Source: Nitrosospira sp. (GTDB lineage Bacteria > Pseudomonadota > Gammaproteobacteria > Burkholderiales > Nitrosomonadaceae). Taken from it: a DNA stretch of 43,913 nucleotides. The notes beneath the pieces are model-generated. The model ran no database searches. It was given only the letters and a program-made list of their open reading frames with translations, and was not told where the DNA came from. The stretch lies in assembly GCA_043752345.1 (NCBI GenBank), contig JAYUYT010000112.1, positions 1 to 43,913 on the forward strand, written 5' to 3'. Numbering within the stretch: the first letter of the stretch is position 1; each line of letters opens with the position of its first letter. A program made the position numbers and the translations under genes. Of the stretch, positions 6,848 through 42,192 are shown piece by piece.

Positions 6848-6871
6848 GCGGATTCAATTTCGAAGTGCAAC
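6848..6871. repeat. IS30 terminal inverted repeat (transposase-distal end)
   Basis: Pairs with 7918-7941 as an inverted repeat, 21 of 24 nt. Confidence 0.75.
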
Positions 6872-7844
6872 GCTCAATGGTGGCTTGGTGTAGCGCACCG
6901 TCTTTCCGAAGAATACCTCAAACGGAGTTCTGAATCCCAGCACTTTGCGCGGCCTGTGGTTGAGGTTATCTACCGCACGCTGGACGTCTTCCACGGTTAC
7001 ATGGGTCAACACCATCACCTTAAGGAAGAACTGCCGCAACAGCCCGTTGCTGTTCTCGTTTAATCCACGCTCCCAAGAATGGTAGGGATGCGCAAAGTAG
7101 ATGCCAATCTCCAACGCGACCGCAATTTTCTCATGTCCTGCAAACTCTTTGCCGTTGTCGAGCGTCAAGGTGTGACACTGTCGCCGGTGAGGAGATAGCA
7201 GGCGCGTAATAGTTGCCGTGACACCGTCGGCGTGTTTACTCGGCACCGGGCTTGCCAGGACATAGCGGGATTTCCTTTCCGCCAACGGTACCAATGCCCC
7301 GCGATGGTTCTTGCCGATCACCGTATCCCCTTCCCAATCCCCGAGGCGGCTACGTTCCTCCACAATCGTCGGGCGTTTGTTCGATGCCAATCCGGTTCGG
7401 GATGACGCCGCGCAGTTCCTGGCCGCTGCCGTAACGCTTGCGGTATGGCTTCTGACAGCGCAATTGCTGCCACAGGTCACCGCCTTGGCGCTTGTTTGCG
7501 TACACCCGCCGGTAGATGGTCTCTGGATCCGCAAATTCCCTTCCAGCGCCAGCCGCTCGGCGGCCTGCTCCGGACTGAACTTGCGCTGGATCAGATCTTC
7601 CACGCATGCCCAGTCTTCCAACGTAAATCGTTGCGCATTGATGCAGCTACGCCGTCGTTCATCACGCATGGCTTGCGCCTGCTTGGGACGCCAGCCACGA
7701 TGGCCTCTGTTGCGCTTCAGTTCCCGAGAAATCGTCGACTTGTTCACACCAATCTCGGTCACTATTGCCACCGGTTTGTAGCCCGCTTTCAACAACCCAG
7801 AAAGCTGGTATCTGCTCACTGGTGAGCTGATTGTAGTGCTTCAT
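6854..7844 (-). pseudogene. IS30-family transposase carrying three frame switches; the 321-aa open ORF is partly out of frame
   Basis: The conserved IS30 sequence is spread over two frames. MKHYNQLTSEQ (ATG 7844) switches near 7811-7813 into RYQLSGLLKAGYK…LALEGNLRI. Near 7522-7528 the conserved ETIYRRVYANKRQGGDLWQQLRCQKPYRKRYGSGQELRGVIPNRIGIEQ continues in the other frame (tracked ORF 7350-7607). Near 7376-7379 it returns to RPTIVEERSRLGDWEGDTVIGK…DNGKEF…HPYHSWERGLNEN. Confidence 0.75.
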
Positions 7845-14687: not shown

Positions 14688-15344
14688 TTACTGTGAGGAT
14701 AGAGTCGGTGGCTGTGATTTTTTGATCTTCTTCCGGTAAATCAATATCCCGATTAAGAACGTCGGGATGACGACCAGAGCGGCGGCAACAAGTCCCACTG
14801 CCAGGATGGCAACCCCGCTGCTTGACGGCATGAAGATCGTAACAAACCAGATTGCAAGAACGGCCGCGACTAAGCCACCGATAAGCATAATTTTTTTGCC
14901 GCGGTCATAGAGCCGCCAGAGCGCGCCGGAAACCCTTACCTCATCAAGGTACTCATCAAGAACCGTGGTCAGGCCAACATCACCAGATACTGCTTGATAG
15001 CCGGCAGTTATGGCAAGTGTATCGCTACCGTCTTCCAGGCGAGACATATTGCGCAGTAACGCAATTTGTCGCTCGACTTCCTTTTTTCTCATGCCGCGAC
15101 TAATCAGCATCGAGTGTAACGCTGTAAAAGCATGGTCACGGGCATCCGTTGCCAAGCCAAGATGCTCTCCATGGCGCCACATAACGCCTACCAGATAGAG
15201 ATGAATCGTCATCTGCTTGAACTCTGGCGCAAAGTCGTATCCTTTTTCTTTAATCAGCAGGAGCTGAGAGGCCAGTGTCTCCTCGCCATGCTGAGTACAG
15301 GCATCGAGCGTCGATGTTTCCGGGTCTGTTTTTGTGTCATTCAT
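14688..15344 (-). CDS. Hypothetical membrane protein (soluble N-domain plus two C-terminal TM helices)
   Basis: A clean 218-aa ORF with an ATG start. The C-terminal hydrophobic stretches (IMLIGGLVAAVLAIWFVTIF, VAILAVGLVAAALVVIPTFLIGILIY) are followed by RKKIKK. No family recognised. Confidence 0.55.
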   Translation of the reverse strand: MNDTKTDPETSTLDACTQHGEETLASQLLLIKEKGYDFAPEFKQMTIHLYLVGVMWRHGEHLGLATDARDHAFTALHSMLISRGMRKKEVERQIALLRNMSRLEDGSDTLAITAGYQAVSGDVGLTTVLDEYLDEVRVSGALWRLYDRGKKIMLIGGLVAAVLAIWFVTIFMPSSSGVAILAVGLVAAALVVIPTFLIGILIYRKKIKKSQPPTLSSQ

Positions 15345-15520: not shown

Positions 15521-16474
15521 ATGAATTTTCCAAGCTATGTGAAAATAGTCGAAGTCGGGCCGCGTGATGGTTTGCAGAATGAATCTGCCATTATCCCTAC
15601 CGCAGTCAAAATAGAGCTGATTGAGCGGCTGGTGCAGACAGGGTTATCCGTGGTGGAAGCCGCCGCGTTTGTGTCGCCTAAGTGGGTGTCGCAAATGGCG
15701 GATCATGTAGCGGTCATGACAGGCATACACCAGCAGCCTGGCGTAAGCTATACCGCACTGGTTCCCAACATGAAAGGTTTTGCTGCGGCATTGGCCACCG
15801 GGGTCAGGGAGATTGCAGTGTTTTCCAGCGCCAGTGACACCTTTTCCAGAAAAAACACTAACTGTTTCATCACCGAAGGGCTGATACGCTTTGCCGCAGT
15901 ATGCGCGGCAGCACAGGCAAACGGTGTGCGTGTGTGCGGCTATATTTCCTGTGTCCTTGGCTGCCCGTACGAAGGCAAAGTACAGGCAGGCAGGGTGGCA
16001 GACGTCGCGGCAGAATTACTGAATATGGGCTGCTATGAGGTCTCACTGGGAGATACCATCGACAGGGGCACGCCGGGAAAGACCAGAAAACTGGTCGAAG
16101 TGGTGACGGAAAAAGTGCCGCTGGAGAATCTCGCTGGACATTTTCACGACACCTACGGTCAGGCGCTTGTCAACGCTTATGCCGCACTGGAATGCGGTAT
16201 AAGTGTGCTTGATTCTTCGGTGGCAGGTCTGGGTGGTTGTCCCTATGCGCCCGGCGCCTCCGGCAACGTGGCGAGTGAAGACCTGCTCTATATGTTGGAC
16301 GGCCTAGGGATCGAGACTGGCGTGGGCATGGACAAGCTGATCGCTGCCGGTAAAACTTCATTTGCGACTTTCTGGGGCGGCTTTCTGGATCAAAAGCAGC
16401 GCGGACGGCTACGGCGAAACGCGGTTGACCTAGGTTGGGACGCAATCGATAGTATATACATACCCTGCCATTAA
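15521..16474 (+). CDS. Hydroxymethylglutaryl-CoA lyase (HMGL-like); the C-terminal tail is probably frameshifted
   Basis: HMGL motifs are present: VKIVEVGPRDGLQNE, LGDTI, HFHDTYGQALVNAYAALECGISVLDSSVAGLGGCPYAPGASGNVA(S/T)EDL. After the AAAA run at 16352-16355 the family-typical tail NFICDFLGRLSGSKAARTATAKRG* lies in frame 1 (16354-16428), not in the frame that runs to 16474. Confidence 0.8.
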   Translation: MNFPSYVKIVEVGPRDGLQNESAIIPTAVKIELIERLVQTGLSVVEAAAFVSPKWVSQMADHVAVMTGIHQQPGVSYTALVPNMKGFAAALATGVREIAVFSSASDTFSRKNTNCFITEGLIRFAAVCAAAQANGVRVCGYISCVLGCPYEGKVQAGRVADVAAELLNMGCYEVSLGDTIDRGTPGKTRKLVEVVTEKVPLENLAGHFHDTYGQALVNAYAALECGISVLDSSVAGLGGCPYAPGASGNVASEDLLYMLDGLGIETGVGMDKLIAAGKTSFATFWGGFLDQKQRGRLRRNAVDLGWDAIDSIYIPCH

Positions 16475-16748
16475 ATGAATGCATCGTACCGTGGCGACCC
16501 CCGTGACTGCTTTATGAACCGCTTTCCCGACAGGACTTGTGCTATGCTTTTTCGGTGGGGATTGTCCACAGATTAATGTTAATCCCCAGTTCGCCATGGC
16601 ACGTGCCCCCCAGCTTGCGAGAGGCCCGGTAATGCATCAGAATTGAATTGCAAAAGGAGTTCGATTCGTGAGCTTTGTGCAACAAGCAGGCACCGGATTT
16701 TCCGGTAAACTGTGACGTAATATTCTTTCATACCCATAGGAGAGCATC

Positions 16749-17123
16749 ATGTCCCGCAAAAAATCCCTAATATCCATCGCTGTTGGTTCAGCCTTTGCCA
16801 CCACCCTTGGTATTGCGCCACTGGCTTCCGCTGCTGAGAATCCCTTCGTCCTTCAACCTTTGGATAGCGGCTACATGGCAACCCAAGGACATGGGGCAAT
16901 GAAAATTGCGCAAGCAAAATGCGGTCAGGGCAAATGTGGCGCAATGAAATCCAGCGAAGGCATGTGTGGTGTGACCATGGCCGATAGCAACAAGGACGGC
17001 AAGGTCAGCAAGGAAGAGTGGAGCAAGCATCATGACACCATGTTTGAGCACATGGATGCCAACAAAGACGGTTTTATTGACAAAGCCGAATTGGGAAAAG
17101 GCGAAATAGCCAAGAAGAAATAG
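16749..17123 (+). CDS. Exported Cys-motif precursor protein (HvfA/bufferin-like N-part) fused to a pair of EF-hand loops
   Basis: The RBS AGGAGAG lies 6 nt before the ATG. A Sec signal peptide (…IAPLASA|AENPF) is followed by three GxCG motifs (AKCG, GKCG, GMCG; Cys58, Cys63, Cys73). Two canonical 12-residue EF-hand loops follow (DSNKDGKVSKEE, DANKDGFIDKAE). It sits immediately upstream of DUF692 and DUF2063 genes. Confidence 0.75.
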   Translation: MSRKKSLISIAVGSAFATTLGIAPLASAAENPFVLQPLDSGYMATQGHGAMKIAQAKCGQGKCGAMKSSEGMCGVTMADSNKDGKVSKEEWSKHHDTMFEHMDANKDGFIDKAELGKGEIAKKK

Positions 17124-17197
17124 ATGAAAGACGGCAAGTGCGGTTTATGGTGAGAGTGGGCGCGGCAGTATGAAAGGATAGCCGCCCGGAAGATGTC

Positions 17198-18046
17198 ATG
17201 AATCCTCTACACTTTGCTGGCGCGGGACTGGGATTTCGGCGCGAATTGATTCCTGCGCTAAAAGCTCGCGTCCCCAGCGCCATTGATTTCTTTGAAATCG
17301 CACCAGAGAACTGGATCGATCTCGGTGGCCTGCCGGGGCGTGACTTGCGTAGTTTCACTGAGCGCTACCCCTTTGTCTGCCACGGCCTGTCGCTGTCGAT
17401 TGGTAGTCCGGCGCCCTTGGATGAGGTGTTGCTGCATAAAATCAGGCAGTTCCTCGATCAGCATCAAATCCCGCTTTACACCGAGCACCTTTCATACTGT
17501 TCTGATGACGGCCACTTGTACGACCTGCTTCCGATACCTTTTACCGAGGATGCAGTGAAGTACGTCGCCGCACGCATACACCGTGCCCAGGATATTCTGC
17601 AGCGCCGCATCGCCATGGAGAATGCTTCATTTTATTTGCGTGCACCCATTGCAGAAATGAGTGAAATCGACTTTATCCGTGCCGTACTGACCGAAGCGGA
17701 TTGCGATCTGCATCTTGACGTGAATAACGTGTATGTAAACAGTATCAACCATGCCTACGACCCGATTGAATTTATTCGCGCCATGCCAACCGAGCGCATT
17801 GTCTATATGCACATGGCCGGGCACTATAGGGAAGCGGAGGACTTGATCATCGATAGCCATGGTGCGGACGTAATCGATCCGGTGTGGGCGCTGCTGGATG
17901 AGGCCTACCGCATTCATGGTGTGACGCCGACGCTGCTGGAACGCGACTTTAATATTCCGCCCCTCAATGAGTTGGTCTGCGAGGTTGAACGTATCGCCCT
18001 GATTCAGACCAGACATACTCATGCAAGCCATGTCTGCACTCCTTGA
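17198..18046 (+). CDS. DUF692 / MNIO family (MbnB-like multinuclear non-haem iron oxidative) peptide-modifying enzyme
   Basis: A 282-aa protein with the typical UPF0276/DUF692 sequence: GAGLGFRRE…[11 protein letters not shown]…[11 protein letters not shown]…YTEHLSY…IAMENASFY…[15 protein letters not shown]…YMHMAGH…IDSHG…PTLLERD. Confidence 0.9.
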
Positions 18047-18782
18047 GTTTCAGCGCTTTCAATACGCCTTCACCGCGCATATCCGCGAGCCGAAGGCACA
18101 TCCCCGTCCGCACGGTACTGAAGCGCGGCGCATGCAGGTATACAGTGGGCTGGTTTACAACAATATCGAGAGTTTTCTTCTGGCTTGCTTTCCCGTGTTG
18201 CGGCAAGTGCTGGGGGTGCGTCGCTGGACACGATTGGTGCGCGCCTTTCTTGCCACGCACCGCAGCCACTCGCCTTTTTTCCGCCAGATACCCGATGAAT
18301 TCATCCGTTTCCTGCAGACCGAGTGGACAGCATCTGCGCATTACCCCGCATATATGCTGGAACTTGCCCACTATGAATGGATAGAGCTAGTGCTGTCCAT
18401 TTCGACTCGTGTGCCGGATTGGGATCGGATCGACCCGGGAGACGACTTGCTCGAGCAGCGCCCGGTGCTGAATCCGGTGCTTGCCAGCCTGCATTATCAC
18501 TGGCCCGTACAGCGTATCGGTCCGCGTGTCCGGACTGCGCCGATAGAGACGTATTTGCTGGTATTCCGCGATGCGGATGATCGAGTTCAATTCATGGAAA
18601 TCAATACGTTCACCGCACGTTTGCTGGATTTGCTTGAAACCGCCAAACTCACCGGTCGGCACGCGCTTGAGATCGTCGCGACAGAAAGCCGCCATCCTGT
18701 GCCCGAAACCGTGATTCAGGGTGGGCTGGTAGTCATGGAGGATTTGCATGCCCGCGGTGCACTACTGGGAGTTTCATGTTAG
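18021..18782 (+). CDS. DUF2063 family protein (MbnC/HvfC/BufC-like partner of the MNIO enzyme)
   Basis: N-terminal DUF2063 pattern: [18 protein letters not shown]…[25 protein letters not shown]…[12 protein letters not shown]. It overlaps the DUF692 stop by 26 nt (17 nt if Met4 is used), which implies translational coupling. Confidence 0.85.
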
Positions 18783-24104: not shown

Positions 24105-24529
24105 GCCGGACGGTTACTGCTGTGGATCGGCTCACTATCTGGGAAGGTAATGGGTTGATCCACAGATTTTAGTCTGCTGTTTGAGCGCTTTGTTTTCATT
24201 AACAAGCAGCGCGCTGGTTTTCTATCTTCTGTCGCAACTTGTGCTTTGCTGTGCAAGCGCGCTGTCACCTATTTTCCTTGTCAAATGGAAATCAAGGCTG
24301 CCGCCTTAAATCCGCGCTCACCCCTATCGGACATACCTCATCGAATTTAAGTCACCTATTTGACTGCTATTTGGCGTTACAAATGGCCTATAGACAAGCA
24401 TGTCCTGAAGATGTATAGTTCATTTGCCATTACTCTCTGAAACAGAGGAGTAAACGTTAGGGTAGCACGCGTACTGGCAGGATTGGCGCATTTGCTCTAT
24501 GCGCAATAATTAACTTTATGGAGGGAGAC

Positions 24530-25609
24530 ATGAGTAAAGTTGTTCAAGCAGTCGTCGGCTTAGGACTGTTATGTTTTGGCGCTGCATCGGTGTCGTGGGC
24601 AGATCCTGCCGATAAGCTACCGAGAGTGAAGCAGGAATTGGTGAAGCCACCCTTCTTGCCAAAGCATGACCAGGTTTCTAAAGGCCCCAGGGTCGTGGAA
24701 GTGCGCATGACCATGGAAGAAAAACTCATACAAATTGATGCCGCTGGCACAAAGGTATGGGCCTTGACTTTCAACGGTACCGTACCTGGTCCGCTAATCG
24801 TAGTAAGCGAAGGTGATTACGTTGAAGTCACCCTGGTCAATCCCAAAACCAGCACGATGGCGCATAACGCTGACTTTCATGCGGCGACTGGTGCATTGGG
24901 CGGGGCAGGCTTGAACTTGGTGCAACCTGGTGAAGAAGTCACAATACGTTGGAAAGCGATCAAGACCGGCGTATTTGTCTATCACTGCGCTCCTGGCGGA
25001 ACCATGATCCCGTTTCACGTCATTTCCGGCATGAGCGGTGCCGTTATGGTGCTGCCCAAGAATGGTCTGACAGACAACAAGGGCAAGTCATGGAAGTATG
25101 ACCGGGCTTATTACATCGGCGAGCAGGATTTTTACATCCCCAAGGATGCGGATGGAAAATACAAAACCTACGCTCAACCGCTCGAAGGCATGGCCGATAT
25201 GCTGGAACTGTCGAAAGGGCTTATCCCGACTCATGTAGTGTTCAACGGTGCAGCAGGCGCGTTGACCGGCCCGAATGCACTCACCGCAAAAGTGGGTGAG
25301 AAAGTTCTGTTCATTCACTCCCAGGCCAATCGTGATTCCCGTCCGCATCTGATCGGTGGTCATGGCGACCTGGTGTGGCAAGGCGGTTCGTTCAATGACC
25401 CCCCCATCACCAATCAGGAAACCTGGTGGGTCCCGGGTGGCTCTGCGGTAGCTGCTGGGTATGAGTTCATTCAGCCTGGCTTGTATGTGTACCTGAGCCA
25501 TAACCTGATCGAAGCAGTATTGCTGGGAGCTGCAGCGCATATGATGGTCGAAGGCAAGTGGGACGACGACATGATGAAACAAATCAAGAAGCCGGCACCG
25601 TCGAAGTAA
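24530..25609 (+). CDS. nirK: Copper-containing nitrite reductase NirK
   Basis: Has a signal peptide and the type 1/type 2 Cu ligand motifs ([27 protein letters not shown]-like [25 protein letters not shown]). The ATG at 24530 lies directly after GGAGGGAGAC. Confidence 0.9.
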
Positions 25610-31064: not shown

Positions 31065-31141
31065 ACACCAAAGAGAAATTGAAAACAATCATTGTGCGAA
31101 ACTAGCATGGTTTAGTGTAGTTTTTTTTGGAGGGGATGCAC

Positions 31142-32311
31142 GTGGGAGTTCCTTTACGTCAACAAATAGCAGTCGGCAGTTACTTGCTCAAGCAAAAATT
31201 GAAGGGGATCAAGAAGTATCCACTGGTTCTAATGCTGGAGCCTTTGTTTAAATGCAATCTGGCTTGTGCAGGCTGCGGTAAAATTGACTATCCGGATGAT
31301 ATTCTGGACAAGCGTCTTACGTTTGAAGAATGCATGCAGGCAGTCGACGAATGCGATGCGCCGATGGTATCGATTCCGGGCGGTGAGCCGTTGATCCACA
31401 AGGAGATGCCGCAAATCGTGGCAGGCATCATTGCCCGCAAGAAATATGTTTATCTGTGCACCAATGCACTGTTGTTGAAAAAGAGGATAGACGATTATAC
31501 GCCGTCGCCTTATTTGACTTTCTCCATCCACCTCGACGGCATGAAAGAACGGCATGATGCCTCGGTGTGTCAGGAAGGTGTTTTTGAGCGCGCGGTTGAG
31601 GCAATAAAACTGGCGCTGGGAAAGGGTTTCAGGGTCACGATCAACTGCACCCTGTTTCAGGGTGAAACCCCGAAAGACGTTGCCGAATTTTTGGATTATG
31701 CCATGGAGCTAGGAGTTGAAGGCGCCACCATCGCACCCGGATTCAGCTATGAACGTGCTCCGCAGCAGGGCATTTTTATCAAGGGTGAAGATACCAAGAA
31801 ACTATTCCGGGGTATTTTTGAAATCGGCAAGACGCGCAAGTGGAAACTGAATCACTCGTCGCTTTATCTTGATTTTCTGGCGGGCAATCAAAATTATCAG
31901 TGCACGCCTTGGGGCAACCCAACGCGTAATGTGTTCGGTTGGCAAAAACCTTGTTATTTGTTGCCGGACGAAGGCTATGCAGCCAGTTTCCAGGAGCTGC
32001 TGGATGACACGCCCTGGGCCAAGTATGGCAACAGCAGCAATCCCAAATGCGCACAGTGCATGGCGCATTGCGGTTATGAAGCCACCGCGGTTGAAGACAT
32101 GCTGCAGAACCCGCTCAAAGCGTTCGGAGTATCGCTACGCGGTCCCCGCACGGATGGACCGATGGCACCGGAACTGCCGCGAGTGTATGACGTCGCCCAG
32201 CCGCATGGTGCCGGCAGAAAAGAATTCCCCGTAGCAGTAGTGGTCGAACGCAAAGCAGGTACGACTGGTTCTGCGTCCGGCGGATCGGTTGGCACAGGCA
32301 CTGATGGATAA
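31142..32311 (+). CDS. hpnH: Adenosyl-hopene transferase HpnH (radical SAM)
   Basis: Shows VPLRQQIAVGSYLLKQKLKGIKKYPLVLMLEPLFKCNLACAGCGKIDYP (the CxxxCxxC radical SAM motif in HpnH-typical context). The GTG at 31142 lies 8 nt after GGAGG. The in-frame ATG at 31136 and TTG at 31127 abut or overlap the RBS. Confidence 0.9.
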   Translation: MGVPLRQQIAVGSYLLKQKLKGIKKYPLVLMLEPLFKCNLACAGCGKIDYPDDILDKRLTFEECMQAVDECDAPMVSIPGGEPLIHKEMPQIVAGIIARKKYVYLCTNALLLKKRIDDYTPSPYLTFSIHLDGMKERHDASVCQEGVFERAVEAIKLALGKGFRVTINCTLFQGETPKDVAEFLDYAMELGVEGATIAPGFSYERAPQQGIFIKGEDTKKLFRGIFEIGKTRKWKLNHSSLYLDFLAGNQNYQCTPWGNPTRNVFGWQKPCYLLPDEGYAASFQELLDDTPWAKYGNSSNPKCAQCMAHCGYEATAVEDMLQNPLKAFGVSLRGPRTDGPMAPELPRVYDVAQPHGAGRKEFPVAVVVERKAGTTGSASGGSVGTGTDG

Positions 32312-32369
32312 CGATCTGCTATTCTGAACTAAAAATGTGTTGAGTGTGTTTGCTGGAAAGGTTGTCAAT

Positions 32370-32999
32370 ATGAGAATCTTGCCCGGAATCAAGGCAGTTT
32401 CACACTTCTGGGTGATGGCAGTGGTGCTGCTGGTCACGTCCCTATCCTGGGCGCAGAAGCCGGAGTCAGGTAGCCCAGAACAAGTTGTACACCGTTTCCA
32501 TGAAACACTGCTCGAGGCGATGCGCGAGGGTGGCAGACTGGGCTATCGAGGCCGACTCGAACTCTTGGCGCCCGCTGTTGACCGCTCGCATGACCTTGAT
32601 TTTATCGCGCGCACCGCCTTGGGAAGTCACTGGGCCAAGCTGGAACCAGAACAGCAACGCGTATTTACCGATACCTTTCGGCAACTCAGTATCAGCAGCT
32701 ACGCAGGCTGGTTCAAAAGCCACGAAGGCGAGCGTTTTGAATTCGTGGAGCAGCAGCCCATGCCGCGGGAACAGGTGTTGGTGCGGAGCCAGTTGATCCA
32801 GGCAAAAGGCGAGGTTGTGCGATTCGACTACGTCCTGCGGCAGACAAAAGACGGCTGGCGCATCATCAACATTCTGGCTGATGGTGTCAGTGACCTTGCG
32901 CTGAAACGTGTCGAATACCGTGCCGTCCTTGAGCGGGATGGCTTTCCGGCGCTCATCGACATGCTCAAGAAAAAGATCGTTCTGAGCGAGCAAAATTAA
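32370..32999 (+). CDS. hpnM: Hopanoid-associated periplasmic MlaC/Ttg2D-family lipid-binding protein (HpnM-like)
   Basis: Has a signal peptide (…LVTSLSWA|QKP). The body resembles toluene-tolerance Ttg2D/MlaC proteins (FIARTALGSHWAKL…QQRVFTDTFRQLSISSYA…WRIINILADGVSDL). It sits between hpnH and hpnN. Confidence 0.7.
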   Translation: MRILPGIKAVSHFWVMAVVLLVTSLSWAQKPESGSPEQVVHRFHETLLEAMREGGRLGYRGRLELLAPAVDRSHDLDFIARTALGSHWAKLEPEQQRVFTDTFRQLSISSYAGWFKSHEGERFEFVEQQPMPREQVLVRSQLIQAKGEVVRFDYVLRQTKDGWRIINILADGVSDLALKRVEYRAVLERDGFPALIDMLKKKIVLSEQN

Positions 33000-33030
33000 T
33001 TATTGATCGTTCCGATTTGCTTCCTGAAGG

Positions 33031-35697
33031 GTGACCACAATAGTGGAAGCTTCGCATAGCCGTAGCTACCGCGCTTTCGCGCGCTGGGTCGCTGCATCCT
33101 ATCATTATGCTGCATGGGTCCTGTTCGCATCGCTGCTGATTGCGGTGGCATGCGCCGTCTACACCTCGCGTAATCTGGGTATGAATAGCGATACCACAGA
33201 TATGCTCTCGGAGCACCTGCCGTTTCGCGTCAATTACAAGCACTACAAGAAAACGTTTCCTCAGGATCAGGAAATGGATACCTTGGTGCTGGTGCTGGAT
33301 GCCTCTACACCCGAGCAGGCACACACTGCCAGCAAACGCTTGGCAGAGCGCCTGCAACAAGACCCCACGCATATTAATGATGTCTATCTTCCAAGCGGAG
33401 ATGTTTTTTTTGAGCGCAATGGCCTGCTTTACGAAAGCATACCGGAACTGGGGCATATCACTGATCGCCTGGCAGCGGCACAGCCGCTGATCGCAAGGAT
33501 TGCCGGGGATCCCACTTTGCATACCTTCGCCTCAGTACTTACGGAAGCGGTGGAAGAGTTACGTGGCGGGCGCAATCTTGAACTGGGGCCAGTGCTGGGT
33601 GGGATGAGCGCAACGCTGGATGCGAGACTTGCCGGTGTACCGCGGGCACTATCATGGCAGGTGCTGTTTCGCGGCGAGGCACAGAAGACTACTTACCGGG
33701 AATTGATGACGGTGCAGCCGAAGCTGGACTATACCCAGTTATCCGCAGCGGAACAGTCGATTGCGGCACTGCGCGCCACTGCACGGGATCTTGGTCTGAC
33801 GGAGAATGGGATGCGTTTGCGCATCACTGGCGATGTGGCGCTGGCTGACGAGGAGCTCAAGAGCGCGATGCATGGTACAGAATACGCCGGACTGCTCGCA
33901 CTCGTGCTGGTGACGGTGGTGCTTTATATCGCGCTGCATACGGCTGGCTCAATCCTTACCGTGCTGCTTAGCCTGGTACTGGGTTTGTTGCTGACGGCGG
34001 CTTTCGCCACCGCGGCAGTCGGTCATCTGAACGTCATCTCAATTGCATTTGCGGTGCTATATGTAGGTCTCGGGGTAGATTATGCGATCCATTTTCTGCT
34101 GCGATACCGCGAGTTGCTGGAAAGCGGTCAGTCAGTGGCGAAGGCTCTGCAGGCAACTGGCGGCGACACCGGGCACTCACTATTTTTATGCGCTGTCACC
34201 ACCACTATCGGCTTCTACGCATTTATGCCAACTGCCTACCGTGGGGTTGCAGAGCTGGGATTGATCGCGGGCACTGGTATGCTGATCAGTCTGGTGGTTA
34301 CCCTCACTTTGGCACCTGCCTTACAACGCTACTTGCCGACACGACCTAGAGCAGCATCTACTGGTGCAGGGGGTTCGCTGGGCAAGCTGCTCGAGTTGCC
34401 TTTGCGGTGGCGCAAAGTGGTGTATGCCGGCACTTTCGCCGCATTACTTGTTGCCGTGGCGGTATTACCAAAGATTGAGTTTGACTACAACCTGTTGAAT
34501 CTGCAGGATCAGCGTGGAGAAGCCGTACAGACTTTTCGCGAGTTGCTGGCAGAAACCGAGCATTCACCCTGGCATGCGGTTGCGCTAGCCGACAATGAGG
34601 TGGAGCTGGATCAGCTGGCACAGCGTTTAATGGGGCTGCCTGAAGTCGGCAGAGTGGTCACGATCCTAGATTTCATACCCACAGCGCAGGAGGAGAAGCT
34701 CGCCCTCATTGAAGAGATGGCACTTACGTTGGGGCCACTCACATTTGCGGCAGCACCGCCGGTGGCAAACCAGTACACGCTGGCACAGCAGCGCACCGCA
34801 CTGGATAGGCTGAGCGCCGCACTGGACCGATTCATTGCCGAACGGCCTGATCACCCTGCGTTGGTGCCCGCCCGCAGCCTCAGAGCATCGCTGGGTGTAT
34901 TGTTCACTCACTTTGACGCGGCCGCCAGCATCGACGACAAGAACCAGTTGTTGCATGCAGTTGGCAAAGATTTGCTTGCCCTGTTGCCCGATGCCATGCA
35001 GCGGCTGCATACTTCGCTCGAAGCCACCCCGTTTGCTCAGCAGCAGTTGCCAGAATCATTGCGCACGCGCTGGCACAGCCAGACGGGGCAATATCGGGTC
35101 GCGATCTACCCGGCAGAGAATATCAATGATAATCAGGCGCTGCGACGTTTCGTGCGGGCGGTGCAGCAGGAGGCGCCGCAGGCCACTGGTGCGCCGGTGA
35201 TAAGTCTGGAGGCAGGCGAGGCGGTGGTGCAGGCATTCATCCTGGCTTTTTCGCTGGCGCTGGTGGGGATTAGCATAATACTTTTGGTGATGTTGCGCAG
35301 TGTGGTATTTACCTTGCTGGTGTTGATTCCTCTTTTACTGGCTGCGCTATTCACAGGTGCTGCTACCGTGTTGTTGGGAGTCCAGTTCAATTTTGCCAAT
35401 ATCATAGCGTTGCCGCTGCTGCTGGGTATCGGTATCGACAGCGGCCTCCATCTGGTGCACCGAAGCCGCAGTGACGAAACGACTCATGAAGATTTGATGC
35501 ATACTAGCACCACGCGCGCCATTTTTTACAGTGCGTTGACCACCTTGGTCGGTTTTGGCAGTCTGGCATTCTCTTCGCATCAGGGCACTGCCAGTATGGG
35601 GGTGCTGCTCACCATAGGGTTGGCGCTTACACTGATCTGCGTCCTGGTGATACTGCCAGTGCTGTTGGCGACTTCGATCCGGGGTGCAAGCTCATGA
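33031..35697 (+). CDS. hpnN: Hopanoid-associated RND-superfamily transporter HpnN
   Basis: An 888-aa protein with two 6-TM bundles (GVDYAIHFLLRY…, GIGIDSGLHLVHR…) separated by large periplasmic domains, in a hopanoid gene context. GTG start. Confidence 0.85.
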   Translation: MTTIVEASHSRSYRAFARWVAASYHYAAWVLFASLLIAVACAVYTSRNLGMNSDTTDMLSEHLPFRVNYKHYKKTFPQDQEMDTLVLVLDASTPEQAHTASKRLAERLQQDPTHINDVYLPSGDVFFERNGLLYESIPELGHITDRLAAAQPLIARIAGDPTLHTFASVLTEAVEELRGGRNLELGPVLGGMSATLDARLAGVPRALSWQVLFRGEAQKTTYRELMTVQPKLDYTQLSAAEQSIAALRATARDLGLTENGMRLRITGDVALADEELKSAMHGTEYAGLLALVLVTVVLYIALHTAGSILTVLLSLVLGLLLTAAFATAAVGHLNVISIAFAVLYVGLGVDYAIHFLLRYRELLESGQSVAKALQATGGDTGHSLFLCAVTTTIGFYAFMPTAYRGVAELGLIAGTGMLISLVVTLTLAPALQRYLPTRPRAASTGAGGSLGKLLELPLRWRKVVYAGTFAALLVAVAVLPKIEFDYNLLNLQDQRGEAVQTFRELLAETEHSPWHAVALADNEVELDQLAQRLMGLPEVGRVVTILDFIPTAQEEKLALIEEMALTLGPLTFAAAPPVANQYTLAQQRTALDRLSAALDRFIAERPDHPALVPARSLRASLGVLFTHFDAAASIDDKNQLLHAVGKDLLALLPDAMQRLHTSLEATPFAQQQLPESLRTRWHSQTGQYRVAIYPAENINDNQALRRFVRAVQQEAPQATGAPVISLEAGEAVVQAFILAFSLALVGISIILLVMLRSVVFTLLVLIPLLLAALFTGAATVLLGVQFNFANIIALPLLLGIGIDSGLHLVHRSRSDETTHEDLMHTSTTRAIFYSALTTLVGFGSLAFSSHQGTASMGVLLTIGLALTLICVLVILPVLLATSIRGASS

Positions 35698-35804
35698 GAA
35701 AGTTGTGCACCACTTCAATAGTTTTTGTTTATACTTCGCACCCTGAGCAGTCGATATATTACAGAACAGGATCTACGGGAGAACAATCTACCTGATATCT
35801 GATT

Positions 35805-36758
35805 ATGAAACTTAATCACCGGACTCTAACTACGTTACTGCTATTTGCTGTGTTATTGGCAGGCTGCGCTACCGTACCCCAGAATGACCAGAGCGACCAG
35901 ACTGCCCGGAGTGTCGCCCCAGTCGATCCCTACGAGAATACCAACCGCACATTTTACAAGATCACCGATGCTGTTGACCGGCACGTTCTGGAGCCGGTCG
36001 CCCATGCCTACATAGTACATGTACCCAACCCCTTGCGGCGCTCGATCGGAAATTTCTATGATAATGTCGCTTATCCAAACGTAGCCCTGAACGCCTTTCT
36101 GCAAGGCAAGGTACAGCAGGGACTCGAGGATACTTTGCGCTTTGCCATCAATTCAACCATAGGCCTGTTTGGATTGTTTGACATGGCGACACCCATGGGG
36201 CTGAAGCAGAACGACGAGGATTTTGGGCAGACACTGGGGGTGTGGGGTGTTGATACCGGCTCTTATTTATTTCTTCCTTTTCTTGGCCCCAGCAGCAGTC
36301 GCGATGTATCCAGCATCCCCGTCAGCGTATTCACTAATGCTCTTTTTTATATAAGTAGCGCCGCAATTTTTGCGCCCATAGGCGTTCTGGGTATCATCGA
36401 CAAACGCGCGCGATTATCGGGCTCCATGCTTATTCGTGATCAGGCGGCGCTGGACGCCTATCTGTTCGTGCGTGAGGCTTCTTTGCAGCAGCGCAAGCAT
36501 CAAGTTTATGATGGCAACCCGCCACCTGAAAGCTATGACGATTTTTCGCAGGATGACTCTTTGGAAGGTACTTCAGTGCAGGCTAATTCCTTACAGAACA
36601 ATCCAGCAAGGGATCGCCGTACCGACAGGGTGTCGCATTCACAGGATGATCCAATAAAAATGACGCTGGACCTCCCACGGGCTAATCTTCAGCAGATTGA
36701 TCTTGAGAGCAATCCCGCAAGGGATCGGCGTACGGACAGAATGCCGCTGCTGCATTAA
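35805..36758 (+). CDS. MlaA/VacJ-family outer-membrane lipoprotein with a repeat-bearing C-terminal extension
   Basis: Has a lipobox (LLAGC|A). The VacJ core is DPYENTNRTFYKITDAVDRHVLEPVAHAY…IGNFYDNVAYPNVALNAFLQGK…INSTIGLFGLFD…DFGQTLGVWG…YLFLPFLGPSS. About 70 extra C-terminal residues follow. Confidence 0.85.
   Translation: MKLNHRTLTTLLLFAVLLAGCATVPQNDQSDQTARSVAPVDPYENTNRTFYKITDAVDRHVLEPVAHAYIVHVPNPLRRSIGNFYDNVAYPNVALNAFLQGKVQQGLEDTLRFAINSTIGLFGLFDMATPMGLKQNDEDFGQTLGVWGVDTGSYLFLPFLGPSSSRDVSSIPVSVFTNALFYISSAAIFAPIGVLGIIDKRARLSGSMLIRDQAALDAYLFVREASLQQRKHQVYDGNPPPESYDDFSQDDSLEGTSVQANSLQNNPARDRRTDRVSHSQDDPIKMTLDLPRANLQQIDLESNPARDRRTDRMPLLH
36600..36740 (+). repeat. 30-bp imperfect direct repeat pair encoding NPARDRRTDR twice in the MlaA-like tail
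   Basis: 36600-36629 and 36711-36740 match at 26 of 30 nt. They are in frame and 111 nt apart. Confidence 0.7.
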
Positions 36759-36961
36759 CGGAACGCGAATTACCAGACCAGGGCCACCGCTGACGACAAT
36801 GAAGCGAGTTGTTTCACACCGCATGCATGGAACCAAGGCGCACGACTCCAGTCTGATGTAATCATCCCGGCACCTACTATCGGGAGCATATCAATGGGTT
36901 ATAATGCGGAGTTATGTAACAAAGCATTTAGTACGCGAATGATTAAAGAGACCTCGATCGT

Positions 36962-38941
36962 ATGACCAAAGCATCTCTACGGGATAACGGCGGTAATTCC
37001 GCAGGCAAGGTTGCCGCTACGCGCCAATGGCAAAATGCAGAGCAAGGTGTAACAGATGCTGCGGCACTGGAAAATGGGTTTGCCGCAGCACGTAAGGCTC
37101 TGCTGTCCCTACAGAAACAGGATGGGCACTGGTGTTTCCCGCTGGAAGCAGACTGCACGATCCCATCTGAGTATGTGCTGATGATGCACTTCATGGATGA
37201 TGTGGACACTGGCCTGGAAGTCAGGTTGGCCCGATTTATCCGTGAGCAGCAAGATACGGAACATGGTGGTTGGGCGCTGTACTATGGCGGCCATTTCGAT
37301 CTGAGCTGCACGATCAAGGCTTACTATGCTTTGAAGATCGTCGGTGATTTGCCCGACGCGCCGCATATGGTGCGCGCCCGCACAGCCATTCTGGCGCACG
37401 GCGGCGCAGCACGGGCCAACTCATTCACCCGGATACTGCTCGCCATGTGGGGTCAGCTTCCCTGGCGCGGGGTGCCATTCATGCCGGTGGAAATTATATT
37501 ATTGCCGAGCTGGTTTCCGTTTCACCTGAGCAAGATTGCCTACTGGTCGCGCACCGTGACCGTGCCGCTGACCATTCTATACTCTCTGAAGGTGCAGTCT
37601 GCCAACCCGCGTAAGGTCAATATTCCCGAGCTGTTCACCGTACCTGCGGAAGATGAACGCGACTACTTTCCAGTGCGTTCAACGCTCAACCGGATCTTCC
37701 TGATAGTCGAGCGCACGGCTCGACTATTCGAACCACTCATCCCAAATGCCTTGCGTCGCGTTGCGCTACGTCGTGCAGAAAGCTGGGTAGTGGAACGGCT
37801 TAACGGTGAGTGTGGTCTGGGAGCGATTTTCCCCGCCATGGTGAATGCCAATGAAGCGCTGGCGTTGCTGGGATATGCTTACGAACATCCTTATCGAGAG
37901 CAGTGCCGCCGGGCTTTGCATGGATTGCTGGTGGAAGAGGGTGAGCGTGCCTGGTGTCAGCCATGCACCTCGCCGGTGTGGGACACCGTCCTTGCAACCC
38001 TTGCTTTGCAGGAGGATGTAGGCGCAGACCAGAAATCGATCCGGAGAGCCCTTGATTGGCTGGTGCCTCTGCAGATACTCGATGCGCCCGCAGACTGGCA
38101 GGAAGATCATCCCGGGCTGGCTGGTGGCGGTTGGGCCTTCCAATATGCCAATCCTCATTATCCCGATTTGGATGACACTGCTGCAGTGGCTTGGGCAATG
38201 TATCAGGCGGATCCACAAGTTTATCGTGTAAGTCTGGAGCGAGCGGCAGACTGGCTTGTCGGGATGCAATCCAATAACGGAGGTTTTGCAGCATTTGATG
38301 CCGACAACACTTGTTACTATCTCAATGAGATTCCGTTTGCTGACCACGGCGCGTTGCTTGACCCGCCGACCAGCGACGTCAGTGCCCGGTGTACAGGTTT
38401 TCTGGCCCTGTATGGCAAGCCTGAACAGCAGGATCGTATGAAACGGGGGCTGAGTTATCTGTTTAGCGAACAGGAGTCCAGTGGCGCCTGGTTCGGGCGC
38501 TGGGGAAGCAATTATATTTACGGCACCTGGTCAGTATTGGAGGCTTTGCGGCTGGCACGTGTGGATACCGATCACATCGCCATCCGCCGTGCAGTGCAAT
38601 GGCTTAAATCCGTGCAGCGTGATGACGGCGGTTGGGGTGAAGGCAACGATACTTACTTCAAGCCGCAACAGGCCGGACATTTTTTCACGAGCACTTCATT
38701 TCAGACCGCGTGGGCATTGCTTGGTCTGATGGCGGCGGGAGAAGTGCACAGCTCGGCGGTGCGCCGTGGCATCGAATATCTGTTGCGTGAACAGGATGAC
38801 AACGGTCTGTGGGACGATCCATGGTTTACTGCGCCAGGCTTTCCACGGGTTTTTTATTTGCGATATCACGGTTATTCGAAGTACTTTCCGGTGTGGGCTT
38901 TGGCGAGGTTTCATGCGCTGACTCGGAAGACTTCCGTGTGA
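36962..38941 (+). CDS. shc: Squalene-hopene cyclase
   Basis: A 659-aa protein with multiple QW repeats (QxxDGGWG: QKQDGHWCF, QQDTEHGGWALYYG, MQSNNGGFAAFD, QESSGAWFGRWG, QRDDGGWGE, QDDNGLWDD). The catalytic DxDDTA motif is present (PDLDDTAAV). Confidence 0.95.
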   Translation: MTKASLRDNGGNSAGKVAATRQWQNAEQGVTDAAALENGFAAARKALLSLQKQDGHWCFPLEADCTIPSEYVLMMHFMDDVDTGLEVRLARFIREQQDTEHGGWALYYGGHFDLSCTIKAYYALKIVGDLPDAPHMVRARTAILAHGGAARANSFTRILLAMWGQLPWRGVPFMPVEIILLPSWFPFHLSKIAYWSRTVTVPLTILYSLKVQSANPRKVNIPELFTVPAEDERDYFPVRSTLNRIFLIVERTARLFEPLIPNALRRVALRRAESWVVERLNGECGLGAIFPAMVNANEALALLGYAYEHPYREQCRRALHGLLVEEGERAWCQPCTSPVWDTVLATLALQEDVGADQKSIRRALDWLVPLQILDAPADWQEDHPGLAGGGWAFQYANPHYPDLDDTAAVAWAMYQADPQVYRVSLERAADWLVGMQSNNGGFAAFDADNTCYYLNEIPFADHGALLDPPTSDVSARCTGFLALYGKPEQQDRMKRGLSYLFSEQESSGAWFGRWGSNYIYGTWSVLEALRLARVDTDHIAIRRAVQWLKSVQRDDGGWGEGNDTYFKPQQAGHFFTSTSFQTAWALLGLMAAGEVHSSAVRRGIEYLLREQDDNGLWDDPWFTAPGFPRVFYLRYHGYSKYFPVWALARFHALTRKTSV

Positions 38942-39660
38942 GGGTGGTAGGTATCGTCGCGGCCATGCGGGTGGAAGCGAGTTGTCTTACCTCATCGCGC
39001 TTGCCTTTCAATGCAAGGGTTGGCTTGGGAGGGGGTGCGGCAATATGGCTCTGCGGGATGGGTGAGAAAGCGGCGCGGGAAGCAGCGGTAGGGTTGCGGG
39101 CAAGTGGTGCGACCACTCTGGTGAGTTTCGGGCTTGCGGGTGCGTTGGACTCAAGCTTGCGTCCGGGAGACCTGGTGCTGCCTGAGTCGATTCACGCTGG
39201 AGGCATATTGCCGGTTGATCTGGATTGGCGTAATCGCCTGCAACAATGTTTGCCCGCGCACTTGAGTATTGCGAGCGGCATATTAGCCACGAGCTCGCGA
39301 GTGCTGACTTCGGCGAATGCCAAACGTGAGTTGGCAGAATCCACTGGGGCCTGTGCAGTGGACATGGAGAGCGGTGCAGTGGCTGAGGTGGCTGCGAATG
39401 CCGGTGTGCCATTCCTTGCGGTGCGGGTGATTGCAGATCCAGTTGAATTTTCACCGCCCCAAGTGTTACTTAAGGCGGTACGCCCTGATGGCAGCGCGGA
39501 TCCGGCCCGCCTGCTGGCCTTGCTGTTGCGACGATCCGTGACGCTGGGTACGTTGCTACGCCTCGCGGCACAGCTCCGCGCCGCGCGTTCCACTCTACGG
39601 ATAGTGGTGCAGTATGCAGGCATGGAACTGGGAGTTACTGCCGATCAAGCCCGTAGTTGA
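38938..39660 (+). CDS. hpnG: Hopanoid-associated phosphorylase/nucleosidase HpnG (PNP_UDP family)
   Basis: Shows VGIVAAMRVEA…LVSFGLAGAL…AVDMESGAVAEVA…PFLAVRVIAD. A GTG at 38938 overlaps the shc stop (GTGA); alternative starts are GTG 38944 and ATG 38965. The tracked start at 38809 lies inside shc and is rejected. Confidence 0.75.
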   Translation: MRVVGIVAAMRVEASCLTSSRLPFNARVGLGGGAAIWLCGMGEKAAREAAVGLRASGATTLVSFGLAGALDSSLRPGDLVLPESIHAGGILPVDLDWRNRLQQCLPAHLSIASGILATSSRVLTSANAKRELAESTGACAVDMESGAVAEVAANAGVPFLAVRVIADPVEFSPPQVLLKAVRPDGSADPARLLALLLRRSVTLGTLLRLAAQLRAARSTLRIVVQYAGMELGVTADQARS

Positions 39661-42083: not shown

Positions 42084-42192
42084 CGAGTTTACTCCCGCCT
42101 ACCCTGCGAGTAATTGCCAAAGGGGAATAGCCGGTTCCTTCACCGGCGTGACGGGGGTTCCTATTTGAAGGCTGACACCGGAAGGGGTGAGC

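Follow-up and report, generated by a model that had tools for sequence, protein, structure and literature searches.

A probable HvfA-type precursor fused to an EF-hand pair, encoded beside HvfB and HvfC genes in a Nitrosospira contig

What is made by a locus in which a small exported protein with two EF-hand calcium-binding loops is encoded directly in front of a pair of enzymes of the kind that turns cysteines of ribosomal precursors into copper ligands? We examined three co-oriented genes at 16749–18782 on the forward strand of a 43,913-nucleotide (nt) stretch of Nitrosospira sp. (contig JAYUYT010000112.1, assembly GCA_043752345.1), which we refer to as a whole as the window. A preliminary description had placed here a signal-peptide protein with three x-C-G motifs (Cys58/63/73) and two EF-hand loops, followed by a DUF692/MNIO gene and a DUF2063 gene, and all of these features were found at the coordinates given. 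We find that the trio is best explained as a captophorin-type (HvfABC-like) operon for a ribosomally synthesised and post-translationally modified peptide (RiPP) whose substrate is a small protein, not a short peptide. It is a well-supported member of a class catalogued in 2025, with one partly characterised relative, and not a new kind of system.

The three genes and their families

The precursor gene, an hvfA-type EF-hand chimaera (open reading frame (ORF) A; 16749–17123, +), encodes 124 amino acids (aa), with a predicted mature protein of 96 aa and ~10.3 kDa. Sequence features and family conservation identify residues 1–28 (16749–16832, +) as a probable Sec-type signal peptide: the N-terminus, MSRKKSLISIAVGSAFATTLGIAPLASA|AE, has a basic n-region, a hydrophobic core, Pro at −5 and A-x-A at −3/−1, with cleavage predicted at ASA|AE, and K5, V12, G13, A15, F16, P24, A28 and A29 are invariant or ≥90% conserved across the family. 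Next comes an N-terminal motif, AENPFVLQPLDSGYMAT (aa 29–45; 16833–16883, +), in which P32, F33 and G41 are invariant and Q36, Y42 and A45 are ≥90% conserved; it is also present in EF-less HvfA-family proteins (P0291–P0315) and is a candidate HvfC contact region. The Cys-motif core, AQAKCGQGKCGAMKSSEGMCG (aa 55–74; 16911–16970, +), holds the only three cysteines of the protein, Cys58, Cys63 and Cys73, in the arrangement AKCG-Q-GKCG ... GMCG, and these are the predicted 5-thiooxazole sites; Cys73, Gly74 and Met77 are ≥90% conserved in the family, and Cys58 and Cys63 are variable. EF-hand loop 1, DSNKDGKVSKEE (aa 79–90; 16983–17018, +; D79, D83 and E90 invariant), starts exactly 6 residues past Cys73 and is joined by a 12-residue inter-loop helix, WSKHHDTMFEHM (17019–17054, +), carrying H94, H95, M98 and M102, to EF-hand loop 2, DANKDGFIDKAE (aa 103–114; 17055–17090, +; D103, N105, G108 and E114 invariant). 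Profile searches bear out both loops (Pfam EF-hand_5, E = 2.6e-12 in two stretches, the best at aa 97–116; EF-hand_1, E = 8.2e-11).

The second gene, hvfB (ORF B; 17198–18046, +; 282 aa), encodes an MNIO (DUF692) maturase of the ‘Lys-Cys’ substrate type and starts 74 nt 3′ of the ORF A stop. It scores 433.3 bits against HvfB (NF003818, cut-off 360; spanning 8–270 of 282 aa) and matches Pfam MbnB_TglH_ChrH (PF05114) at E = 8.2e-105, whereas it falls under the cut-offs for BufB (NF050167, 263.5 vs. 310 bits), MbnB (TIGR04159, 33.3 vs. 325 bits), ApyH and ChrH. A methanobactin system was rejected on the MbnB score, and a bufferin system on the BufB score together with a precursor that has no DUF2282 match. 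The closest solved structure is 3BWW, a DUF692 protein of Histophilus somni (E = 7.7e-78); the ORF B motifs are HGLS, EHLS, MENAS, HLDVNN, HMAGH, IDSHG and ERDF, and the alignment of the two proteins, which speaks at the sequence level only, retains HGLS, EHLS, ENAS/ENTS, HLDVNN, H(M/I)AGH, D(S/T)HG and LLERDF, with the iron-site His/Glu/Asp/Asn motifs all kept. Residues N176/N177, D219, H221 and D250 lie at conserved ligand or catalytic motifs, and ORF B keeps the equivalents of HvfB N175, D242 and H244, site-3 ligands whose substitution abolishes HvfBC activity. Its R14–R15 and D250–F251 correspond to Arg15/Arg16 and Asp249/Phe250 of FonB, which provide the catalytic base and determine the Lys-Cys substrate class.

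The third gene, hvfC (ORF C; 18021–18782, +; 253 aa), encodes a DUF2063 + RRE-type partner (PME type 1) and overlaps hvfB by 26 nt. It scores 279.6 bits against HvfC (NF050145, cut-off 142), matches DUF2063 (PF09836, 3.6e-26) and NGO1945_C (PF22106, 7.9e-25), and has PDB 3DEE as its closest solved structure (E = 1.6e-16), so that the families first proposed for both enzymes are upheld. Both 3BWW and 3DEE have been assigned to genuine RiPP loci, and roughly half of the Pseudomonadota reference genomes carry MNIO/DUF2063 operons (Gadgil et al. 2026).

The chemistry attributed to such pairs at the outset, conversion of Cys residues to copper-binding heterocycle/thioamide groups, needs partial revision: oxazolone/thioamide stands for MbnBC, but the product of HvfBC/BufBC-type enzymes was reassigned in 2026 from oxazolone/thioamide to 5-thiooxazole (PMC13097082; bioRxiv 10.64898/2026.06.05.730506). 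HvfBC of H. influenzae modifies six Cys in the AEGKCGEGKCG repeats of HvfA, whose signal peptide cleavage was shown experimentally and whose modified form binds Cu(I) (PMC11252979), and HvfBC, FonBC and NgoBC all put 5-thiooxazoles on EGKCG motifs to give products that bind Cu (PMC13097082; bioRxiv 10.64898/2026.06.05.730506); one of the two 2026 groups proposed the class name captophorins for all MNIO-PME1 products. The window shares with oxazolin (HvfA/HvfBC of nontypeable H. influenzae) and with the captophorins fontiphorin and gonophorin a Sec signal peptide, (E)GKCG pentads, an HvfB-type MNIO with HvfC, and the gene order A-B-C; unlike it, these systems have precursors with no EF-hand domain and with 6–7 modified Cys in regular AEGKCGEGKCG repeats, and a DoxX gene (HvfX) belongs to their operons. 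Bufferins (BufA1/DUF2282 and BufA2 with BufBC) likewise combine signal-peptide precursors with a closely related MNIO and a DUF2063-RRE partner, and are thiooxazole Cu chelators acting in the periplasm, as we propose for the window product, but their precursors have the DUF2282 fold and Cys-Lys type motifs. Methanobactin (MbnA/MbnBC) also pairs an MNIO with a partner that together oxidise Cys of a ribosomal precursor into copper ligands; it differs in its oxazolone/thioamide product, leader peptide, dedicated export system and use in copper acquisition.

At the genomic level the window carries the features of the captophorin Lys-Cys group, namely an MNIO + PME1 pair by the precursor, AKCG/GKCG pentads, and the Arg-Arg and Asp-Phe residues. 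FonBC needs two adjacent pentads, tolerates K/A/R/T at position 3, takes a small residue at position 5 and rejects Pro (PMC13097082). The ORF A motifs appear to fit these rules, AQAKCGQGKCG being a double pentad near-identical to EAKCGEGKCG, the minimal FonBC substrate, but with Gln where the latter has Glu. Comparison with the HvfA-type models gave a divided answer on the likeness to HvfA seen initially: the HvfA-family domain NF050137 (KCGExKCG_twice) scores 17.6 bits over aa 56–74, 1.9 bits under its cut-off of 19.5, because ORF A has one double pentad plus one single motif, and the relatives match this model in 48/63 cases at E ≤ 0.01 and, among diverse relatives, above the cut-off in 8/8 (20.9–53.1 bits). 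The HvfA equivalog NF050188 (cut-off 95 bits) gave no match to ORF A at E ≤ 1, and relatives reach at most 43 bits; ORF A is therefore no orthologue of H. influenzae HvfA.

The EF-hand cassette and its geometry

The preliminary description regarded the EF-hand pair as an unusual addition, which does not hold: the class is already in Leprevost et al. 2025 (PMC12452194), where an EF-hand fusion is treated in silico only as a ‘second type’ of Buf_EGKCG/oxazolin precursor, with at least 150 accessions listed in its supplement, and a relative, EfhP of Pseudomonas aeruginosa, has been studied. Those authors predicted the Cys region to be disordered and raised Ca homeostasis or signalling as a possibility. 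Judged on the published description, the window has the architecture of their Buf_EGKCG|EF-hand_5 class: a hydrophobic helix/signal peptide, then a short Cys domain of the EGKCG type that lacks 17-residue repeats, a pair of EF-hand_5 domains at the C-terminus, and a gene placed before those for an MNIO and a DUF2063-RRE partner. Within the literature searched, ‘EF-hand’ and ‘MNIO’ occur together only in that paper and its preprint. New here, compared with that work, are a fixed Cys-to-loop junction, a 12-residue loop spacing, a His/Met signature, Cys repeats after the EF pair in many members, and the cassette-like gain and loss of the pair.

Among 5.8 billion proteins searched, 311 homologues of ORF A were found at E ≤ 1e-3; EF-hand Pfam domains were present in 120/120 among the matches listed, which come mostly from Nitrosomonadaceae, Thiobacillus and unclassified metagenome contigs. 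The family is built of the same modules in order, a signal peptide, an ENPFxxQxLxxGYMVA motif, one to five x-G-K-C-G pentads and the EF pair, with extra GKCG pentads C-terminal to the EF pair in ~40% of members and two tandem Cys-EF-EF modules in a few. The window protein, with 3 Cys and without C-terminal repeats, is thus a reduced form of the class. HvfA-family precursors have gained or lost the EF pair as a cassette, as follows from P0292, an EF-less protein of 101 aa with the same signal peptide, ENPF...GYM motif and GKCG pentads, whose gene lies directly 5′ of an MNIO-HvfC pair: it aligns end to end with the EF-bearing P0140 apart from a 47-residue indel that is the EF pair, and the EF-minus and EF-plus genes belong to two syntenic operons, L044 and L046 (on metagenome contigs of the JGI samples 3300037307 and 3300037308), with the shared order HSP20, ECF (extracytoplasmic function) sigma, anti-sigma, precursor, MNIO, HvfC and OEP/OmpA. 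Residues 1–67 of ORF A are 58% identical to P0292 (pairwise E = 3e-25).

The junction between the two halves has a fixed geometry in this subfamily. From the last Cys on the N-side to the first Ca ligand the distance is exactly 6 residues (C-G-x-x-M-A-D) in 112/118 members with two recognisable loops, the inter-loop spacing is exactly 12 residues in 117/118, and the junction Cys is retained even in members whose other pentads became YGEKRDG repeats. The spacing would correspond to one shared inter-loop helix: in the AlphaFold2 (AF2) model of the precursor a helix is predicted at residues 88–102 (predicted local distance difference test (pLDDT) score ~70) and the Cys region is predicted to be disordered. 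We limited structural conclusions from this model to that helix; a Foldseek search of it against the PDB had no match at E < 0.1, and what it did bring up were scattered EF-hand proteins.

A near-invariant unit, C-G-x-x-M-A-[EF loop 1]-x-x-K-H-H-D-x-M-F-x-x-M-[EF loop 2], spans this region, and we compared it in 120 family units with a control set of 205 generic EF pairs that have the same 12-residue spacing and come from 84 unrelated proteins. The controls came from a profile search of 1.84 billion representatives (31,775 matches at E ≤ 0.001, mostly generic multi-EF-hand proteins), which was used only for this set and for ~17 diverse full-length family representatives. His is found at helix position 4 in 79% of family units vs. 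5% of generic pairs and at position 5 in 91% vs. 12%, Met at position 8 in 95% vs. 14% and at position 12 in 90% vs. 15%, while Phe at the structural position 9 is common to both (100% vs. 92%); Met at −2 is present in 96% of the family and is outside the five commonest residues (≤8%) in the generic pairs. The contrast persists among 50%-identity representatives (His/Cys at helix position 5 in 9/11 family units vs. 20/200 generic), and two divergent members replace the position 5 His by Cys. This pattern is suggestive of a metal-ligand role for the His/Met signature, with the caveat that the family members are interrelated.

EfhP (PA4107), known as a Ca2+ sensor of a pathogen, is the only class member with experimental data, which concern Ca2+/Fe signalling and virulence. 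Its gene is operonic with DUF692 and DUF2063 genes (Sarkisova 2014, PMC4053335), and the protein, predicted to be periplasmic, binds Ca2+ selectively (Kd 13.7 uM) and changes conformation on binding (Kayastha 2022, PMC9132961); its loss alters Ca-regulated virulence and iron uptake, and its EGKCG repeats have been noted as uncharacterised, with iron sensing proposed (King 2024, PMC11559002). The EfhP sequence that we analysed (P0334) has loops identical to the published table and EGKCG motifs directly before the EF pair, and its locus has the order efhP-MNIO-HvfC with a convergent DoxX gene beside it. EfhP and the window protein are both predicted to be exported and both carry EGKCG-type motifs followed by two EF loops (DxxxDGKVSxxE, DxxxDGFIxxxE), encoded directly 5′ of DUF692 and DUF2063 genes. 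They differ in that EfhP has a loop spacing of 15 residues (vs. 12), a last Cys 9 residues before loop 1 (vs. 6), a long C-terminal tail, no His/Met signature and DoxX beside the operon, at a BLASTP identity of 32% over 101 residues; by these measures EfhP belongs to a different subfamily.

These comparisons bear on the possibility that the window protein is mainly a periplasmic Ca2+ sensor or signal transducer of the EfhP type. On binding Ca2+ it would expose a surface for contact with envelope signalling systems, and its modified Cys arm, instead of storing copper, would tune the response or add a second, redox or metal, input. Such a role would suit an EGKCG/EF-hand protein from the same type of operon whose conformation depends on Ca2+ and whose loss alters Ca-regulated virulence and iron uptake, as well as the ECF sigma/anti-sigma pair found directly 5′ of the operon in several relatives and the suggestion of Ca homeostasis or signalling by Leprevost et al. 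However, loop spacing, junction geometry and C-terminal tail set the subfamily of the window apart from EfhP, identity with which is only 32%, no sigma/anti-sigma or other signalling gene lies beside the window operon, all characterised EGKCG products bind copper, and the upstream ECF pair is equally consistent with induction by metal stress. We consider this role unlikely.

The loops were also compared with those of lanmodulin. Lanmodulin has Pro at EF loop position 2 and a short inter-loop spacing, which the 12-residue spacing here resembles, and the precursor gives weak lanmodulin matches (NF053806, 23.1 bits; PDB 6MI5 and 8FNS, E ~4e-4). We rejected a lanmodulin assignment: the score is far under the 135-bit cut-off, there are two loops and not four, and position 2 is Ser/Ala in the window protein (T/A/L/I/S/V across the family) with Asn at position 3. 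More broadly, service of the EF loops or the Cys arm to another metal, whether lanthanides or iron, draws on these matches and on the suggestion of King et al. 2024 that the EGKCG Cys of EfhP may sense iron; set against the selective binding of Ca2+ by EfhP and the binding of copper by every characterised thiooxazole peptide, it seems to us very doubtful.

Two further exported proteins with a loop of this kind were seen outside the family. Proteins encoded at L031 6001–6105 (a Porticoccaceae metagenome-assembled genome (MAG)) and L032 6001–6144 (a gammaproteobacterial MAG) have MGMGMMGGG repeats flanking a single AHMDANKDGVIDASD EF-type loop, with no MNIO or HvfC homologues detected in either locus; they are a possible parallel design, with soft-metal arms around a Ca loop.

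Gene neighbourhoods and the proposed role of the product

The small ORF is conserved directly 5′ of the enzyme pair. In a species-level genome collection, precursor, HvfB and HvfC follow one another directly in 19 of 23 Nitrosomonadaceae loci, and the same A-B-C order holds in 7/7 other loci, made up of four distinct Thiobacillus-like/metagenome loci (L036, L038/L039, L040/L041 and L042), the EF-plus/EF-minus pair and P. aeruginosa. Two tandem EF-hand precursor genes precede hvfB in 9/19, all Nitrosospira (L015–L023, strain NpAV included as L021), and orphan precursor copies without an adjacent MNIO gene make up 4/23 (L010, L011, L013 and L014). The closest loci are in Nitrosospira MAGs (precursor 90% identity, HvfB 94–96%), from which the window locus is taken to be Nitrosospira/Nitrosovibrio-like. 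In locus L004 the operon is flanked as it is in the window (folD, a hypothetical gene, an HMGL-like lyase gene, A-B-C, nrdA), whereas L021 lies elsewhere in its genome. The trio recurs in related and distant genomes, far more than chance would allow. Horizontal transfer of the operon was rejected on the lack of a GC-content anomaly across it.

This conservation argues against an incidental adjacency, in which the neighbouring MNIO would not modify the EF-hand protein and the two enzymes would have some other, unannotated peptide as their substrate. The sub-cut-off NF050137 score and the four orphan copies could be taken to favour it, but at least three of the four orphans come from MAGs in which a complete locus is present as well, among the Cys it is the one nearest the EF pair that is best conserved, and no other Cys-containing small ORF lies 5′ of hvfB. 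Because the gene order is conserved across bacterial families and the syntenic loci L046 and L044 have an EF-plus and an EF-minus precursor at the same place, we judge it very unlikely.

The trio is flanked 5′ by an HMGL-like lyase gene (15521–16474) and 3′ by nrdA and nrdB; no DoxX, protease or transporter gene flanks it, in agreement with what was first noted of exporter, protease and DoxX genes. A NirK gene, put at about 6 kb in that description, is indeed present 5.7 kb from the operon (24518–25609; 462 bits vs. TIGR02376, copper-containing nitrite reductase, cut-off 296), with nrdAB in between, and is not co-transcribed with it. Relatives have other neighbours. A PCu(A)C copper-chaperone gene (PF04314, 121 bits) adjoins hvfC on the opposite strand, convergently, in 4/4 Thiobacillus-like/metagenome loci, in one of which, recovered on two contigs (L038/L039), a TonB-dependent receptor gene follows; ECF sigma and zf-HC2-type anti-sigma genes lie 5′ of the precursor in 3/4. 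Homologues of PCuAC, the ECF sigma factor and the anti-sigma factor are absent in the window and in all Nitrosomonadaceae loci, and DoxX was seen only beside the P. aeruginosa operon, with none in the inspected Nitrosomonadaceae and Thiobacillus-like loci.

Given this gene content, we consider it probable that HvfBC modifies the ORF A cysteines to thiooxazoles, that the product is exported by Sec and folds at its EF hands on Ca2+ binding, and that the thiooxazole arm binds Cu(I). By homology with the characterised systems, events would run as follows. In the cytoplasm the iron- and O2-dependent HvfB, with HvfC, would oxidise Cys58, Cys63 and Cys73, each in an x-(K/M)-C-G pentad, to 5-thiooxazole with a loss of 4 Da per conversion; low cytoplasmic Ca2+ would keep the EF-hand half unfolded, so that the modified chain could be exported by Sec and its signal peptide cleaved at ASA|AE. 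In the Ca2+-rich periplasm both loops would bind Ca2+ and fold around the single shared 12-residue helix, and the N,S donors of the thiooxazoles would bind Cu(I), whereby the protein would buffer or handle periplasmic copper. The EF pair would then serve as a folded, soluble, Ca-dependent scaffold for an otherwise disordered Cu-binding arm. An exported, Cys-modified metal-binding protein with a Ca-binding EF pair had been proposed from the outset, and it is the best-supported reading, on the enzyme profiles, the gene order and the homology of residues 1–67 to an EF-less precursor.

Several points weigh against this proposal. Modification and Cu binding are themselves proposed by homology for the whole EF-hand chimaera class, and the phenotypes published for EfhP relate to signalling by Ca2+ and Fe and not to copper. 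ORF A falls short of the NF050137 cut-off, its third motif has Met at pentad position 3, a residue outside those tested with FonBC, and its three Cys make an odd number of bidentate donors if each Cu(I) takes two thiooxazoles. Confidence in the AF2 model, built from a 63-sequence alignment, is low (mean pLDDT 52.8, with the EF region alone reaching ~70). The window locus is without the DoxX gene, the ECF sigma/anti-sigma pair and the PCuAC gene that accompany relatives, and its neighbourhood has no copper link beyond the unlinked NirK.

If the product does bind copper, its role could be that of a supply or trafficking factor, delivering periplasmic Cu(I) to ammonia monooxygenase, NirK or cytochrome oxidase, and not that of a detoxifying buffer. 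The PCu(A)C gene beside hvfC in all four Thiobacillus-like/metagenome loci, the TonB-dependent receptor that follows in one of them, the Nitrosospira-like ammonia-oxidiser host and the NirK gene 5.7 kb away are consistent with such a role. Cu(I) trafficking proteins, moreover, carry His/Met residues like those of the family helix. On the other side, nrdAB separates NirK from the operon and there is no co-transcription, and a literature search found no expression or proteomic data on the locus in ammonia oxidisers. We hold supply to be a serious but minority possibility. A link to copper is favoured by the PCuAC gene next to the operon in relatives, and a link to signalling by the work on EfhP; on sequence, detoxifying buffer, copper supply and Ca/metal signalling are all candidate roles.

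An extension of the proposal that HvfBC-modified ORF A binds Cu(I) is that the EF pair is itself part of the copper site, Ca2+-driven folding assembling the Cu(I) site to give a calcium-gated copper-binding protein. The near-invariant unit is predicted to place the Cys73 thiooxazole six residues before the first Ca ligand, with H94, H95, M98 and M102 lining one helix face and M77 conserved, and if the single-helix EF pair dimerises, the three thiooxazoles per chain could be completed in trans. This stronger version is speculative and, in our view, rather improbable.

MNIO/DUF2063 products are emerging as a major periplasmic copper-handling system, and the EF-hand-fused precursors are its least understood branch, being folded proteins that would join hard-metal (Ca2+) and soft-metal (Cu+) sites. 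Should HvfBC install thiooxazoles on such a protein, the literatures on bacterial Ca2+ signalling and on RiPP copper metallophores would be linked and the EfhP phenotypes would need re-reading. Core enzymes of ammonia oxidisers need copper, and the system bears on how periplasmic copper is kept available yet harmless. The window version, small, with three Cys and without accessory genes, is a convenient minimal model for asking whether the enzymes modify a precursor with a folded domain and whether Ca2+ and Cu+ binding couple.

Flanking sequence and other features of the window

Upstream of the operon, a ribosome-binding site AGGAG (16738–16742, +) lies 6 nt before the precursor ATG and is invariant in 9/9 aligned loci. 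Across the same nine loci the stretch 16691–16748 is conserved and non-coding; it includes a short inverted repeat, CACCGGATTTTCCGGTA (16691–16707), with a 7-bp stem in the scan, which is partly conserved in the alignment. Most of the invariant columns 5′ of 16690 fall within a block, CAGGACTTGTGCTATGCTTTTT (16521–16547, +), that we tentatively read as an extended −10 promoter element (TGcTATGCT); it was left uncalled by a consensus promoter scan. No regulator site was identified in either conserved block, no Rfam family matched 16400–17250 (the operon 5′ region and the A-B spacer), and the scan found no consensus terminator or promoter inside the operon. A regulatory RNA or attenuator was rejected on the same lack of an Rfam match and of a terminator, and on a fold of the A-B spacer no better than shuffles (z = −1.17).

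Directly after the ORF A TAG stop, an in-frame GKCG remnant reads MKDGKCGLW* (17124–17153, +). It is present in the close relatives L001–L003 and decayed in L004–L009 and L012; close relatives read MRDAKCGSW* or MKDAKCGSW* at this place, and more distant ones MRGGGFGLS or ...EGKRG.... Other family members retain a GKCG repeat at the C-terminus, of which this looks like a decaying remnant, and the lineage of the window has probably been truncated to the three-Cys form. Stop-codon readthrough adding a fourth GKCG was rejected on the loss of the Cys in L004, L007–L009 and L012, though within the window's own clade it could still occur.

Elsewhere in the window, a 218-aa ORF (14688–15344, −) with a C-terminal membrane segment and no Pfam or NCBIfam match keeps its position between folD and the HMGL-like gene in locus L004. 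A hopanoid-type cluster occupies 31127–39660 (radical SAM/DUF3463, MlaC-like, MMPL transporter, MlaA-like lipoprotein, squalene-hopene cyclase and HpnG phosphorylase). No tRNA genes were found within the window. An int-alpA RNA (Rfam RF02996, 46.8 bits, gathering score 35.8) at 42092–42171 (+) lies just 5′ of a 444-aa ORF; the ORFs at 39904–41232 and 42187–43521 are in its vicinity with a phage-integrase-family gene nearby, and the RNA and integrase gene suggest the edge of an integrated element. Between maf and rlmH, a 321-aa ORF (6854–7819, −) with a sub-threshold integrase-core (rve) match (28.4 bits, cut-off 32.6) may be a transposase remnant.

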